39,305 nt of DNA from Escherichia phage vB_EcoP_SP7: sequence record MT682707.1; one strand, 5' to 3'. The notes beneath the pieces were generated by a model. That model ran no database searches. It was not told the DNA's origin and was given only the letters and a program-made list of their open reading frames with translations. Made by a program: the position numbers and the translations under genes. Position 1 is the stretch's first letter; every line of letters starts with the position of its first letter. This document shows positions 4,592 to 38,277 of this stretch, piece by piece.

Positions 4592-4609
4592 ACTATCACT
4601 ATAGGATTA
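4587..4609 (+). promoter_or_regulatory. Phage-RNAP promoter (phi1.1 position)
   Basis: CTAAACTATCACTATAGGATTAG; +1 at 4604. Confidence 0.8.
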
Positions 4610-4650
4610 GACTCAAGGTCATGACTCAAAGTCGTGGCCTTCATGATTAA
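4609..4650 (+). promoter_or_regulatory. RNase III processing site (R1.1-like)
   Basis: AGACTCAAGGTCA...GTGGCCTTCATGATTAA; the same conserved element recurs at 11899 and 34856 and resembles the recalled T7 R0.5 site GACTCAAGGTCGC..GAGTGGCCTTTATGATT. Confidence 0.7.
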
Positions 4651-4679
4651 CCCTAACTCATTCAATCAGGAGCTACACC

Positions 4680-10014: not shown

Positions 10015-11894
<1,880 letters not shown>

Positions 11895-11898
11895 GTCT

Positions 11899-11940
11899 AG
11901 ACTCAAGGTCATTCACAGCGAGTGGCCTTTATGATTAGAC
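11899..11940 (+). promoter_or_regulatory. RNase III processing site upstream of the DNA polymerase gene
   Basis: AGACTCAAGGTCATTCACAGCGAGTGGCCTTTATGATTAGAC; same conserved element as at 4609 and 34856. Confidence 0.7.
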
Positions 11941-14171: not shown

Positions 14172-14441
14172 ATGTATCGTCTGCGTGTCCACAAGAGGAA
14201 CCAAGATGGGTACTTCCGGTACTCCATGGGAAGCTACAGGAAGGGTAACAAGTTCGCCTTCATGTTCCACCGATGGGTGTGGGAGCAGAAGCGTGGACCT
14301 ATACCAGATGGCTATGAGATAGACCATTTGTGCTTGAACCGTGGGTGCTGCAACATAGAGCACCTACAGTGTATTCCAAAGCGCGAACACGTCATTAAGA
14401 CGAACCGCGAGCGCAAACTTGTTAAGAAGGAGTGTCACTAA
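14172..14441 (+). CDS. HNH homing endonuclease
   Basis: HNH motif region GYEIDHLCLNRGCCNIEHLQCIPKREH; located immediately after gene 5, where T7 has no such gene. Confidence 0.8.
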   Translation: MYRLRVHKRNQDGYFRYSMGSYRKGNKFAFMFHRWVWEQKRGPIPDGYEIDHLCLNRGCCNIEHLQCIPKREHVIKTNRERKLVKKECH

Positions 14442-20189: not shown

Positions 20190-20212
20190 GACTAAACTAT
20201 CACTATAGGGAG
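20190..20212 (+). promoter_or_regulatory. Phage-RNAP promoter (phi10 position), strong class III type
   Basis: ACTAAACTATCACTATAGGGAGA; the transcript starts with a GGGAGACC...GGTTTCCC 5' stem-loop like the T7 gene 10 leader. Confidence 0.9.
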
Positions 20213-20315
20213 ACCAAGAGACAGACTCAAGGTTTCCCTATTACTTCAGTCCATACGGATTGGGCGTACAGTAAGTAATAAACTTTATCTTTCAATTGAA
20301 TAGGAGAATTATCAT

Positions 20316-21359: not shown

Positions 21360-21490
21360 GCACCTTTAGCCAACCTAACGTCGCTACAGTAGCGGCCGCA
21401 CCTGAAGAGGAGACTCTAACTCCTCAACAGAAAGCTGCGCGTACTCGTGCTGCGAATAGGGCCGCTAAACTGGCTAAGTCCAACAACTAA
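20316..21490 (+). CDS. Minor capsid protein 10B, predicted product of a -1 ribosomal frameshift near the end of gene 10 (about 391 aa)
   Basis: Slippery heptamer G GTT TTC at 21338-21344 (same as I recall for T7); the -1 frame stays open to TAA at 21488-21490 and encodes ...EETLTPQQKAARTRAANRAAK, resembling the recalled T7 10B tail (EETLTPAQEAARTRAANKARK). Confidence 0.6.
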
Positions 21491-21493
21491 TTG

Positions 21494-21536
21494 AAACCCC
21501 TTGGGTGCCTTCGGGTGCTTGAGGGGTTTTTTGCTT
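21494..21536 (+). terminator. T-phi-like terminator for phage RNAP (also intrinsic-terminator-like)
   Basis: AACCCCTTGGGTGCCTTCGGGTGCTTGAGGGGTTTTTTG: GC-rich hairpin plus U-tract, very similar to recalled T7 T-phi and in the same position after gene 10. Confidence 0.85.
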
Positions 21537-21553
21537 AAAGTGAGAGGAGACTT

Positions 21554-22120
21554 ATGGCTCAATACATTCCACTGAATGCTAACGATGACTTAGATGCCAT
21601 CAACGATATGTTAGCCGCTATCGGTGAACCAGCAGTCCTACAGCTTGACGAGGGGAACGCTGACGTCTCGAACGCTCAACGTATCCTGCATCGTGTCAAT
21701 CGTCAGGTCCAAGCTAAAGGCTGGAACTTTAACATCAACGAAGCTGCTGTCCTGACACCTGACATCCAAGACAATAGGATTCGATTCTTGCCGTCATACC
21801 TTCGTGTAATGACCGCTGGGGCCACCAGCTACTACAGCAACATGGGTGGGTACCTGTACGACCTGTCCACCCAGTCAACCACTTTCACCGACCCTATCAC
21901 GGTAGAGCTTGTGGAGATGAAGCCATTCTCCGAGATGCCTGTGGTATTCAGGGACTACATCGTAACTAAAGCTAGCCGTGAGTTCAACGCTAAGTTCTTC
22001 GGGAGCCCAGAGTCAGAGATATACCTTCGTGAGCAGGAAGCAGAACTCTATCAGCAGGTTATGGAGTACGAGATGGACACTGGTCGCTACAACATGATGT
22101 CTGACATCGGGAGGGACTAA
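21554..22120 (+). CDS. Tail tubular protein A (gene 11)
   Basis: RILHRVNRQVQAKGWNFNINE, GGYLYD, YIVTKASREFNAKFFG..E.E, EYEMD.GRYNM match recalled T7 gp11. Confidence 0.95.
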   Translation: MAQYIPLNANDDLDAINDMLAAIGEPAVLQLDEGNADVSNAQRILHRVNRQVQAKGWNFNINEAAVLTPDIQDNRIRFLPSYLRVMTAGATSYYSNMGGYLYDLSTQSTTFTDPITVELVEMKPFSEMPVVFRDYIVTKASREFNAKFFGSPESEIYLREQEAELYQQVMEYEMDTGRYNMMSDIGRD

Positions 22121-22347
22121 TGGCTAGTCACAACCTGAAGATTCACCGCCAGCACTTTGGCCCGGTACAGCTAGGTCTAAAGACAGCAGAGCTGAGACTT
22201 AACGACCGGGACTTTAAGGTTGGCGATTGGCTTATCCTGAATGAATGGGACAACGGGTATACTGGACAACAGGTAGCACGTAAGGTTGTCCACATTGCTG
22301 ACGTTGGTGACATCGCTGAGGGATACGTTCTAATGAGTATGATTTAA
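22120..22347 (+). CDS. Small PUA/ASCH-like protein (DUF3850-like), 75 aa, inserted between tail tubular genes
   Basis: HNLKIHRQHFGPVQLGLKTAELRLNDRDFKVGDWLILNEW resembles the DUF3850 signature as I recall it; ATG overlaps the gene 11 stop (TAATG). No T7 counterpart. Confidence 0.5.
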   Translation: MASHNLKIHRQHFGPVQLGLKTAELRLNDRDFKVGDWLILNEWDNGYTGQQVARKVVHIADVGDIAEGYVLMSMI

Positions 22348-22356
22348 GGAGGGCCT

Positions 22357-24714
22357 ATGCCGCTTATCACACAAAGCATAAAAAATCTTAAAGGTGGCAT
22401 TAGCCAACAGCCTGATATACTGAGGTTCTCAGACCAAGGCGAGGCACAGGTTAACTGCTGGTCATCCGAGAGTGATGGCCTCCAGAAGCGCCCACCTACA
22501 GTCTTCAAGCGCCGACTTAACATCGACGTGGGGAGCAACCCTAAGTTCCACCTTATTAACCGTGACGAGCAGGAGCAGTATTATATCGTGTTCAATGGGT
22601 CCAACATTCAGGTAGTTGACTTGAGTGGTACTCAATACCCAGTGTCAGGTGCAGTAGACTACGTTAAGTCATCCAACCCACGGGATGACATCCGTGTCGT
22701 TACCGTGGCAGACTATACGTTCGTAGTTAACCGTAAGGTTGTCGTCAAAGGTGGAAGCGAGAAGTCACACTCTGGCTATAACCGCAAAGCACGAGCTTTA
22801 ATTAACCTTCGTGGTGGACAGTACGGTAGAACCCTTAAGGTTGGAATCAACGGAGGAGTCAAGGTCTCGCATAAGCTACCAGCAGGTAATGATGCCGAGA
22901 ATGACCCACCTAAGGTTGACGCTCAGGCCATAGGTTCAGCTCTGAGAGACCTTCTTGTTGCTGCCTATCCAGACTTCACGTTCGACCTTGGGTCTGGCTT
23001 CCTGTTAATCACGGCGCCTTCAGGGACTGACATTAACTCAGTAGAGACGGAGGATGGCTACGCTAACCAGCTAATCAGCCCAGTCCTAGACACAGTGCAG
23101 ACAATCTCTAAGTTGCCTCTTGCGGCCCCTAATGGATATATCATTAAGATTCAGGGTGAGACCAACAGTAGCGCTGATGAATATTACGTGATGTATGACT
23201 CCAACACTAAGACTTGGAAGGAGACAGTGGAGCCGGGAGTGGTCACTGGGTTCGATAATGCCACAATGCCACATGCTCTGGTGCGACAAGCTGATGGCTC
23301 CTTTGAGTTCAAGACGCTGGAATGGTCTAAGCGTGGTGCTGGTAATGATGACACAAACCCTATGCCTAGCTTCGTGGATGCTGCGATTAACGATGTGTTC
23401 TTCTACAGGAACAGACTTGGGTTCTTGTCAGGAGAGAACGTAATCATGAGTCGTTCAGCCAGCTACTTTGCGTTCTTCCCTAAGAGTGTGGCGACATTGA
23501 GTGATGATGATCCTATTGACGTAGCTGTAAGTCACCCTAGAATCTCAATCCTTAAGTATGCCGTTCCGTTTAGCGAGCAGCTACTACTTTGGTCAGATGA
23601 GGTGCAGTTCGTGATGACAAGCTCAGGGGTCCTTACCTCGAAGTCTATCCAGCTCGATGTAGGCTCAGAGTTTGCCTTAGGTGATAATGCCAGACCGTTC
23701 GCTGTGGGACGCTCAGTCTTCTTCTCAGCGCCTCGTGGGTCATTCACCAGCATTAAGCGATACTTCGCTGTAGCAGATGTGTCTGACGTGAAGGATTCTG
23801 ATGATACCACTGGCCACGTGCTGTCCTATATCCCTAACGGGGTGTTTGACATTCACGGAACAGGGACTGAGAACTACATCTGCGTCAACTCTACAGGTGC
23901 ATACAACCGAATCTACATCTACAAGTTCTTGTTTAAGGACGGCGTACAGCTTCAAGCCTCTTGGTCGCACTGGGAGTTCCCTAAAGCTGATAAGATTCTG
24001 GCGTCTGCGTCGATTGGCTCTACCATGTTCATTGTTCGTCAGCACCAAGGCGGCGTAGACCTTGAGCACCTTAAGTTCATCAAGGAGGCAACTGACTTTC
24101 CATTAGAGCCGTATAGACTCCACGTTGACTCCAAGGTGTCTATGGTAATCCCAATTGGCTCATATAACGCTGACACCTATAAGACTACGGTAGACATTGG
24201 TTCTGCTTATGGTGGAAACGCTCCGTCTCCCGGTCGTTACTATCTGATTGACAGTCAGGGTGCCTATGTGGACCTTGGTGAGCTTACCGGCATCTCAACT
24301 GTGGCTATGCTCAATGGCGATTGGTCGGGACGTACAGTGTTCATCGGACGGTCTTATCTGATGTCCTACAAGTTCTCACGGTTCCTGATTAAGATTGAAG
24401 ACGAGAGCGGCACTCAGTCTGAAGACACTGGACGTCTACAACTTCGTAGGGCTTGGGTCAACTACAAGGACACTGGCGCTCTTAGACTCATTGTCAGAAA
24501 CGGTGAGCGGGAGTTCGTGAACACCTTTAATGGGTACACCCTTGGTCAGCAAACCATCGGTACTACAAACATTGGTGACGGGCAGTATCGCTTCGCTATG
24601 AATGGTAACGCATTAACCACGAGTCTAACCTTAGAGTCAGACTATCCTACCCCAGTGTCCATCGTTGGGTGTGGCTGGGAGGCGTCATACGCTAAGAAAG
24701 CTCGTTCCGTCTAA
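22357..24714 (+). CDS. Tail tubular protein B (gene 12)
   Basis: ITQSIKNLKGGISQQPDILR, HLINRDEQEQYY, VTVADYTFVVNRKV, NDVFFYRNRLGFLSGEN, ILKYAVPFSEQLLLWSDE, RLQLRRAWVNYKDTG, IVGCGWEASY match recalled T7 gp12. Confidence 0.97.
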   Translation: MPLITQSIKNLKGGISQQPDILRFSDQGEAQVNCWSSESDGLQKRPPTVFKRRLNIDVGSNPKFHLINRDEQEQYYIVFNGSNIQVVDLSGTQYPVSGAVDYVKSSNPRDDIRVVTVADYTFVVNRKVVVKGGSEKSHSGYNRKARALINLRGGQYGRTLKVGINGGVKVSHKLPAGNDAENDPPKVDAQAIGSALRDLLVAAYPDFTFDLGSGFLLITAPSGTDINSVETEDGYANQLISPVLDTVQTISKLPLAAPNGYIIKIQGETNSSADEYYVMYDSNTKTWKETVEPGVVTGFDNATMPHALVRQADGSFEFKTLEWSKRGAGNDDTNPMPSFVDAAINDVFFYRNRLGFLSGENVIMSRSASYFAFFPKSVATLSDDDPIDVAVSHPRISILKYAVPFSEQLLLWSDEVQFVMTSSGVLTSKSIQLDVGSEFALGDNARPFAVGRSVFFSAPRGSFTSIKRYFAVADVSDVKDSDDTTGHVLSYIPNGVFDIHGTGTENYICVNSTGAYNRIYIYKFLFKDGVQLQASWSHWEFPKADKILASASIGSTMFIVRQHQGGVDLEHLKFIKEATDFPLEPYRLHVDSKVSMVIPIGSYNADTYKTTVDIGSAYGGNAPSPGRYYLIDSQGAYVDLGELTGISTVAMLNGDWSGRTVFIGRSYLMSYKFSRFLIKIEDESGTQSEDTGRLQLRRAWVNYKDTGALRLIVRNGEREFVNTFNGYTLGQQTIGTTNIGDGQYRFAMNGNALTTSLTLESDYPTPVSIVGCGWEASYAKKARSV

Positions 24715-24738: not shown

Positions 24739-24761
24739 CCTTAACTATCACTATAGGGACT
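24739..24761 (+). promoter_or_regulatory. Phage-RNAP promoter (phi13 position)
   Basis: CCTTAACTATCACTATAGGGACT; +1 at 24756. Confidence 0.85.
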
Positions 24762-34842: not shown

Positions 34843-34855
34843 ATCTCTTAAGTGT

Positions 34856-34900
34856 TAGACTCAAGGTCATTACTATATGTAGTGGCCTTTATGGTTAACA
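34856..34900 (+). promoter_or_regulatory. RNase III processing site (R18.5-like)
   Basis: TAGACTCAAGGTCATTACTATATGTAGTGGCCTTTATGGTTAACA; conserved element in the same position as T7 R18.5. Confidence 0.7.
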
Positions 34901-34952
34901 CTAACTAGTGGAGGCGACTCTACGTGAAATCTGATAAACCGGGAGGGCAACT

Positions 34953-38218: not shown

Positions 38219-38277
38219 CACTACCTACAGTCTAACTACCTACAGTCTAACTACCTACAGTCTAACTACCTACAGTC
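38219..38277. repeat. 15-bp tandem repeat array (CTACCTACAGTCTAA, about 3.7 copies), with further CCTACAG copies to about 38330
   Basis: Directly visible; analogous to the short repeat arrays flanking the T7 terminal repeat. Confidence 0.85.

Follow-up and report, generated by a model that had tools for sequence, protein, structure and literature searches.

With high confidence, we assign the 75-codon gene that lies between tail tubular genes 11 and 12 of Escherichia phage vB_EcoP_SP7 to the ASCH family as a real, non-structural accessory gene. The phage is a Kayfunavirus (K1F-like, T7 group), and the stretch analyzed, hereafter the window, is its 39,305-nucleotide sequence record, MT682707.1. 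An original prediction, made from the letters of the window, had placed an open reading frame (ORF) at 22120-22347 with its ATG overlapping the gene 11 stop. The ORF listing and the sequence bear this out: the gene 11 stop TAA (22118-22120) and the ATG (22120-22122) have one base in common in a TAATG overlap. The ORF (75 codons and a stop) translates to MASHNLKIHRQHFGPVQLGLKTAELRLNDRDFKVGDWLILNEWDNGYTGQQVARKVVHIADVGDIAEGYVLMSMI, a protein of 8.5 kDa whose tryptic peptides include IHR/QHFGPVQLGLK and VVHIADVGDIAEGYVLMSMI. The signature on which the prediction was based, LKI....F.....G.KT.E.R.NDRDF.VGD.L.L.EW, agrees with this translation at every residue, and the flanking genes match the Pfam families Tube (gp11) and Phage_nozzle (gp12), which confirms the position between the two tail tubular genes.

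Family, translation and virion status of the 75-residue protein

The proposed DUF3850/ASCH membership was upheld by Pfam, by PHROGs, and by solved structures, in both sequence and fold. In Pfam, the protein scored 70.1 bits with DUF3850 (PF12961; gathering cut-off, 22.9; E=1.9e-19), over profile positions 2-76 of 77, and 26.2 bits with ASCH (PF04266; cut-off, 21.2; E=1.4e-5), where only positions 2-61 of 103 are covered. A search of NCBIfam gave no match. The best PHROG match was phrog_986 (E=2.8e-35), a 253-position profile labelled "RNA-binding protein" in which the domain occupies positions 95-171. The only solved structure that matched well by sequence (E=1.2e-10 with the single sequence, 1.1e-25 with a profile) was PDB 3IUW, a structural-genomics deposit of a bacterial protein from Enterococcus faecalis V583 (NP_814290, 'activating signal cointegrator') whose title and molecule name state no function. 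An AlphaFold2 model computed with 59 homologs (mean predicted local distance difference test score, 97) has the topology β1, α1, β2 to β5. When this model was searched with Foldseek, 3IUW ranked first (template modelling score 0.92), followed by E. coli YqfB (9KYF/9KYH, probability 1.0), and ASCH structures dominated the fold matches. The predicted fold is that of 3IUW, in which β1 and α1 are followed by four more strands as a small barrel.

All of the residues that characterize DUF3850 are present (H4, K7, K21, E24, R26, D29, R30, G35, D36, E42, and G49). K21, R26, and E42 do not vary across 59 diverse stand-alone homologs, in which H4, K7, E24, D29, R30, G35, D36, L40, and G49 are at least 90% conserved; the key residues are intact in 28 of 30 database orthologs (P0001-P0030), down to 65% identity. 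The octapeptide that marks ASCH proteins at the junction of α1 and β2, GxKxx[E/T/S]xR, appears as G19-L-K21-T-A-E24-L-R26, and a profile alignment pairs this GLKTAELR with GRKTITIR of YqfB, at identical numbering, and with GKKRIEVR of PF0469. A full-length ASCH domain (about 100-150 residues) has a C-terminal helical part, which is missing here as the protein ends at residue 75. The protein is thus a true but minimal or truncated ASCH-superfamily (PUA-like) barrel that lacks the usual C-terminal helices.

Fusion partners were uninformative as to function, since 10 multi-domain relatives contained no Pfam domain other than DUF3850/ASCH. In many metagenomic relatives (such as P0052, P0080, and P0160), DUF3850 is N-terminal in proteins of 200-400 residues. 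Their extensions, which have no Pfam match, share motifs such as NACRAAMLQG and by eye resemble lambdoid prophage early-region proteins.

We compared the gene with its orthologs on two metagenomic T7-like contigs, which are 69% and 77% identical, occupy the same slot, and again have the ATG over the gp11 stop. The ratio of nonsynonymous to synonymous substitution rates (dN/dS; Nei-Gojobori) was 0.14-0.18 with dS >1, and gp12 gave 0.14-0.19 in the same comparison. Amino acid identity was 69-79% for the DUF3850 protein and 70% for gp12, indicating that the two diverge in step. This co-divergence, together with the low dN/dS, argues for long vertical co-residence under purifying selection. We considered that the gene might be a recent horizontal import. 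However, its GC content (48.2%, and 51.3% at third codon positions) is like that of the genome (50.1% and 51.6%) and its divergence tracks that of gp12, which rules out this possibility and marks the gene as a long-term resident. A spurious ORF is excluded by the dN/dS, by the synteny in the two contigs, and by the conservation of key residues.

Translation of the ORF, the lack of which would have undone the original prediction, is very probable from the sequence. In the genomes compared at the junction, the final Gly-Arg-Asp codons of gene 11 read GGG AGG GAC, a Shine-Dalgarno site, wherever a start codon overlaps the gene 11 stop. In Citrobacter phage SH4 (L010 1690-1715), which has no overlapping start, the same three residues are encoded by GGT CGA GAC, leaving no Shine-Dalgarno site there. 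Purifying selection and the retention of this site within the end of gene 11 both indicate that the ORF is translated. Relative to gene 11, the DUF3850 ORF lies in the -1 frame, and we also considered that -1 frameshifting might yield a gp11-DUF3850 fusion. However, a TGA at 22102-22104 closes this frame, the 15 nucleotides that remain (CATCGGGAGGGACTA) contain no X XXY YYZ slippery heptamer, and no mass-spectrometry match was recorded for 11.05, the equivalent protein of Citrobacter phage CR44b; the fusion was rejected.

The position of the gene suggests a tail component or a tail-assembly chaperone, and we regard this explanation as largely refuted and barely probable. A T7-type tail or virion protein would be expected in all phages that build this tail and in purified virions. 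K1F, whose gp11 and gp12 are 98.9% and 96.7% identical to those of the window, builds the same tail without the gene, as do phiYIO1-1, SH4, and T7. The CR44b record lists virion mass-spectrometry matches for gp7.3, 8, 9, 10A, 11, 12, 14, 15, 16, 17, and 17.01. The ortholog, 11.05, is unmarked there, though a protein of only 82 residues (gp7.3) was detected. This negative is moderately strong only, as gp13 and gp6.7 are also unmarked and the ortholog is diverged. Virion mass spectrometry of phage B1 reported six major proteins only and speaks neither way. The family also occurs in replication modules of sipho-, myo-, and podoviruses, and the ASCH matches are much stronger than the hub matches. 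The DUF3850 protein is therefore probably not part of the virion.

The original prediction had called such a gene unusual within a late structural operon, and the usual surroundings of the family support this, since DUF3850 elsewhere is found in early, replication, and recombination modules. It lies beside the helicase and primase genes in Shigella phage DS8, after replication gene A in a P2-like phage, near the gene for single-stranded DNA-binding protein in a Listeria phage, and in the early region of a T1-like phage. At 65 IMG/VR loci outside the T7 group, the neighbors were of a generic early-region kind only, namely NinB/Orf (18 loci), a helicase (10 loci), and small proteins of no known function; no specific partner (acetyltransferase, methyltransferase, or tRNA gene) was found at these loci.

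Occurrence, gain and loss at the gene 11/12 junction

As a sequence feature, the gene is nothing new: it is annotated in over 100 public Kayfunavirus genomes, and GenBank and RefSeq records for many of them already show its family and position. Using tblastn, we found the protein in 560 phage records, 48 of them at ≥99% and 146 at ≥90% identity; in the sampled records at ≥90% identity, the gene always lies between the two tail tubular genes. An identical protein, with the same position and the same TAATG overlap, is encoded by ST31, Pkp-1, CHX131, EPr2, and others. Public labels include "RNA-binding protein" (RefSeq ST31 gp33, NC_047829), "DUF3850 domain-containing protein" (EFA-1, FFK3, and EPr2), and "unknown product" (EcoDS1). 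At the DNA level, region 21400-23000 shares 98.4% identity with Klebsiella phage SEA1f and 93-97% with scores of phages of Escherichia and Salmonella. The closest relatives outside the T7-like phages, about 60-65% identical, belong to Kagunavirus and Deseoctovirus siphophages, and metagenomes contain 5,324 DUF3850 clusters at 50% identity. No functional study of this protein came up in searches of the literature on DUF3850, on ASCH together with phage or Autographiviridae, and on N4-acetylcytidine (ac4C) together with bacteriophage.

Three records carry host labels outside the Enterobacterales: MT350292 'Enterococcus phage EFA-1', PV615262 'Acinetobacter phage vB_Aba_01KA', and OR786095 'Staphylococcus phage MBBL139'. 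All three nevertheless match this coliphage-type sequence, the first two with 94-96% DNA identity over the tail-gene region and the third with an 84%-identical protein. These host labels may be wrong or reflect contamination.

The diverged ortholog of CR44b ("11.05: RNA-binding protein"; L009 1674-1898) is 45% identical. Its ORF is intact and the scaffold (GDWLI..EWDNG.TG.QV.RKV.H) is retained, but it differs at K7I, E24D, N28S, D29I, R30P, and Y47I. These losses may reflect relaxed selection or a changed function.

A junction that holds the DUF3850 gene only is the commonest state, found in the window and most relatives (157 of 204 DNA matches span the whole junction), and it also occurs in the most divergent lineages. 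Empty junctions, in which the gene 11 stop overlaps the gene 12 ATG, are annotated in K1F and phiYIO1-1; judged from the span of the match only, YZ1, 216Ecol046PP, SR04, and others are empty as well. In SH4, the empty junction is an 11-nucleotide spacer with its own Shine-Dalgarno site, and T7, as the original prediction had said, has nothing at this position: its genes 11 and 12 are separated by a 23-nucleotide spacer with no ORF. Other phages contain more. Hafnia phage yong1 (L002, MK610268.1, 1460-1900) carries an HNH gene of the Endonuclease VII type (146 residues; Endonuclease_7, PF02945, E=2.6e-20) between the DUF3850 gene and gene 12, with its 3' end overlapping the gene 12 start, and phage B1 has a 158-residue ORF, ORF41, at the same place (PMC12785254). 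The 11/12 junction is a recurrent insertion site.

The gene has also been lost. Although their gp11 and gp12 are nearly identical, K1F differs from the window by exactly 237 missing base pairs, which are bracketed in the window by the imperfect direct repeats GGAGGGACTAATG and GGAGGGCCTATG, each a Shine-Dalgarno site with an ATG. In an alignment of the two, the ATG of K1F gene 12 stands in the context GGGAGGGACTAATG, which in the window serves the DUF3850 gene. In both K1F (L001 2929-2942) and phiYIO1-1 (L008 ~1701), the gene 12 ATG overlaps the gene 11 stop in the context GGGAG(G/A)GACTAATG. Since far more divergent lineages keep the gene, and since the spacer in T7 and in SH4 comes with a Shine-Dalgarno site of its own, the K1F/phiYIO1-1 junction is best read as a deletion scar between the two repeats. 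A second kind of loss is seen in LI10P1 (L007, OZ035801.1, 490-631), where only the first five DUF3850 codons (MASHN) remain and continue in frame into the final 41 codons of the HNH gene, which yong1 has intact. The parts are joined at a 6-bp microhomology, CACAAC, and the frame runs into the gene 12 start. We read this remnant as direct evidence of gene loss. Among about 222 records with a Kayfunavirus-type gp11 (≥60% identity), 154 contain the small protein at ≥80% identity, and roughly three quarters carry the gene. The gene is beneficial enough to be conserved, but dispensable and deleted in several lineages.

One explanation for this pattern is that the gene is a selfish or neutral passenger that arrived with a homing endonuclease and persists only through linkage or as a spacer in translation, doing nothing for the phage itself. 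The HNH gene of yong1 and the ORF of phage B1 at the same junction fit such a history, as do the repeated losses and the CR44b copy, which lacks family-invariant residues. However, selection on the gene is as strong as on gp12 with synonymous sites saturated, the key residues are conserved in nearly all orthologs, and the DUF3850-alone state is the commonest and occurs in the most divergent lineages. We consider a passenger very improbable.

A base-acting pocket as a possible function

Our best explanation combines a translated, non-virion accessory gene, a minimal DUF3850 barrel, and a pocket that acts on a base; taken as a whole, we hold it tentatively, at somewhat short of even chances. In this explanation, the gene entered the slot between the two tail genes in a forebear of the K1F-like phages. 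It travels on the late transcript that reads through the Tφ-like terminator and is translated by coupling, with its ATG over the gene 11 stop, its Shine-Dalgarno site in the last gene 11 codons, and its own stop over the Shine-Dalgarno site of gene 12. In the infected cell, a conserved polar pocket (H4, K7, K21, E24, R26, D29, R30, D36, and E42) would bind a nucleoside or a nucleic-acid base and probably hydrolyze it, removal of an N4-acyl group from cytidine being the likeliest chemistry. Candidate substrates by analogy are ac4C34 of the host elongator tRNAMet and free ac4C. Whether such a pocket would be catalytic rather than purely binding we judge to be evenly balanced; that ac4C specifically would be the substrate is unlikely.

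Our leading hypothesis is a minimal N4-acyl-cytidine amidohydrolase, or at least a protein that would recognize a particular base with this pocket; it draws on the catalytic Lys/Glu pair of ASCH enzymes of the GKER type as an analogy. In a February 2026 preprint, all 19 ASCH proteins tested, of GKTR and GKER types, removed ac4C34 from E. coli tRNA in vitro, and the Lys and the Glu/Thr of the octapeptide were essential in TthASCH, EOLA1, and TRIP4 (bioRxiv 10.64898/2026.02.27.708502). The reported GKER-type erasers (TthASCH, 2DP9; EOLA1, 5Y7D; and the TRIP4 ASCH domain) share GxKxxExR and its Lys/Glu pair with the phage protein, in which the pair is K21 and E24; Tyr14 of TthASCH and F13 of the phage protein are both aromatic residues in helix 1. 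Similarity to E. coli YqfB, an N4-acetylcytidine amidohydrolase (9KYF/9KYH, 1TE7) with 16-17% identity, is partial. K21, T24, and R26 of YqfB correspond to K21, E24, and R26, such that the catalytic Lys21 and the oxyanion-hole Arg26 are conserved. In place of Thr24 (GKTR) the phage protein has Glu24, and it has no segment equivalent to the YqfB residues around 74, which include the C-terminal general acid, Glu74. Judged by these residues, the protein is not of the YqfB type and would belong, at most, to the GKER group.

Several observations weigh against this explanation. The 19 ASCH proteins tested included no DUF3850 or phage member (bioRxiv 10.64898/2026.02.27.708502), and according to Meng et al. 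(2025; Structure 33:2095), as cited in that preprint, Glu-type ASCH proteins are inactive on ac4C, leaving the activity of the GKER type disputed. The C-terminal helical part that holds Glu74 in YqfB and Tyr81 in TthASCH is missing, with 61 of 103 ASCH profile positions matched. E42, D29, and R30 are DUF3850-specific residues without a counterpart in YqfB, and the phage protein may therefore act on a different substrate. In the CR44b ortholog, K7, N28, D29, R30, and Y47 are lost and Asp replaces E24, yet the ORF is intact. A lytic phage would draw no evident benefit from de-acetylating tRNA late in infection. Finally, ParB-CTPase-DUF3850 prophage fusions (PNAS 2025, PMC12704722) contain the same Pfam domain, which is enriched in phages and prophages. 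By our reading of their architectures, the domain comes after the CTPase fold, where canonical ParB has its DNA-binding helix-turn-helix and dimerization domains, which hints at binding rather than catalysis. In those proteins the domain is joined to a ParB fold that binds CTP, with parA as the neighboring gene, whereas the window protein stands alone in a phage without parA or parB.

Possibly, the barrel is a non-catalytic reader that only binds RNA or DNA, perhaps at a modified or flipped-out base, and thereby sequesters or marks it. We find this conceivable, though doubtful. The 'RNA-binding' label in databases is a homology-based name. The isoelectric point of the protein is 6.4 (family median, 6.3), and 73% of homologs lie below 7, a mild acidity more in keeping with a pocket enzyme than with a binder of RNA in general. 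Moreover, nine conserved charged residues within 75, including the Lys/Glu pair that is catalytic in other ASCH proteins, look like an active site.

Some variants of enzymatic action would point to host immunity. A counter-defense enzyme could reverse or intercept an immune modification, such as acetylation of a base or of aminoacyl-tRNA by GNAT-type toxins, or destroy a modified nucleotide on which a defense system relies. A variable, dispensable, patchily distributed accessory gene in lytic phages is typical of anti-defense genes, amidohydrolase chemistry would be the reverse of the GNAT reaction, and ASCH proteins accompany (PIN-)GNAT-EVE toxin-like operons (PMC7641849). However, expression from a late operon is ill-timed against early-acting immunity, the PADLOC match is marginal (E=0.007, 14 bits), and our literature search returned no paper, and no experimental link, tying DUF3850 to defense or anti-defense. 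We consider this role improbable.

Transcript processing in T7-like phages depends on host RNase III. This argues against another enzymatic role, that of a ribonuclease which, like the Zymomonas ASCH protein, would cleave single-stranded RNA for host mRNA turnover or phage transcript processing. The Zymomonas protein is 9% identical and twice as long, and small ASCH proteins and YqfB are structurally closer to the phage protein. Such a ribonuclease is very improbable.

In its most specific form, which we regard as quite unlikely, the base-acting explanation would make the protein a minimal 75-residue ASCH enzyme that erases an N4-acyl mark late in infection, either ac4C34 of tRNAMet or an acetyl group placed by a host GNAT defense or toxin system. 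D29, R30, and E42 would then replace the missing C-terminal catalytic elements.

Transcriptional setting, other features of the window and implications

The features at and around the junction are listed in Table 1. The core of the phage promoters (ACTATCACTATAGG and variants) occurs in 11 copies in the window, and the repeat-family scan of the window found no copy between 20196 and 24744. A Tφ-like terminator precedes gene 11, at the same relative position at which Tφ is annotated in T7. The terminator scan found no terminator-like site in or beside 22120-22347, the nearest being at 21508 and 25065. As there is no internal promoter and the terminator lies before gene 11, genes 11, DUF3850, and 12 form one late unit reached by terminator read-through. 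We therefore rejected a classical 'moron', which has its own promoter and terminator; the gene is a translationally coupled insert instead.

Table 1. Features at the gene 11/12 junction and in the surrounding late region (positions in the window)
Feature	Position	Strand	Details and basis
DUF3850/ASCH-fold gene	22120..22347, stop codon included	+	75 aa, ATG start; equivalent to CR44b gene 11.05
Gene 11, tail tubular protein A (gatekeeper/Tube)	21554..22120	+	Pfam PF17212 Tube, E=5.4e-46; annotated relatives
Gene 12, tail tubular protein B (nozzle)	22357..24714	+	Pfam PF25675 Phage_nozzle, 1091 bits, E=0
Shine-Dalgarno site GGGAGGG of the DUF3850 gene	22109..22115	+	Within the last gene 11 codons (G-R-D); sequence
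Shine-Dalgarno site AAGGAGGG of gene 12	22346..22353	+	Overlaps the DUF3850 gene stop TAA (22345-22347); sequence
Left copy of the imperfect direct repeat (Shine-Dalgarno site and ATG), GGAGGGACTAATG	22110..22122	+	Window/K1F alignment, junction table
Right copy of the repeat, GGAGGGCCTATG	22348..22359	+	Gives the gene 12 start; window/K1F alignment, junction table
Phage RNA polymerase promoter upstream of gene 10	20191..20213	+	Last before the 11/DUF3850/12 unit; repeat family CTAAACTATCACTATAGG
Next phage promoter, between genes 12 and 13	24739..24761	+	Repeat family
Tφ-like intrinsic terminator (hairpin then T-run) between genes 10 and 11	21497..21535	+	Terminator scan; sequence CCCCTTGGGTGCCTTCGGGTGCTTGAGGGGTTTTTT

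Elsewhere in the window, an 89-residue ORF directly after the DNA polymerase gene (14172-14441, + strand) contains, by eye, an HNH-like motif (…DHLCLNRGCCNIEHLQ…). Phage ST31 lacks a counterpart of segment 14126-14888. A homing endonuclease insertion is probable here. Near the right genome end, 38220-38277 is a perfect tandem repeat of about four copies of a 15-nucleotide unit, ACTACCTACAGTCTA, with related copies of CTACCTACAGTC at 38266 and 38298. Three intergenic copies of a conserved element of 45-64 nucleotides (TAGACTCAAGGTCAT…GTGGCCTTTATGGTTAAC) lie at 4595-4658, 11892-11937, and 34843-34906 and may be T7-type RNase III processing sites.

The locus illustrates how a translationally coupled late operon can take in a gene, and lose it again cleanly, with expression of the tail genes undisturbed. 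DUF3850 is a large family that occurs in unrelated phage types, and the K1F-like phages supply natural, isogenic-like pairs for studying it, with K1F, YZ1, and SR04 lacking the gene and ST31 and the window phage carrying it. The protein is tiny, confidently modelled, and has a homolog with a crystal structure. Hydrolysis of ac4C or another N4-acyl group via K21 and E24 is a concrete and cheap hypothesis. Should the protein indeed erase an N4-acyl mark late in infection, no viral 'epitranscriptomic eraser' would precede it, and no known member of its enzyme class would be smaller.

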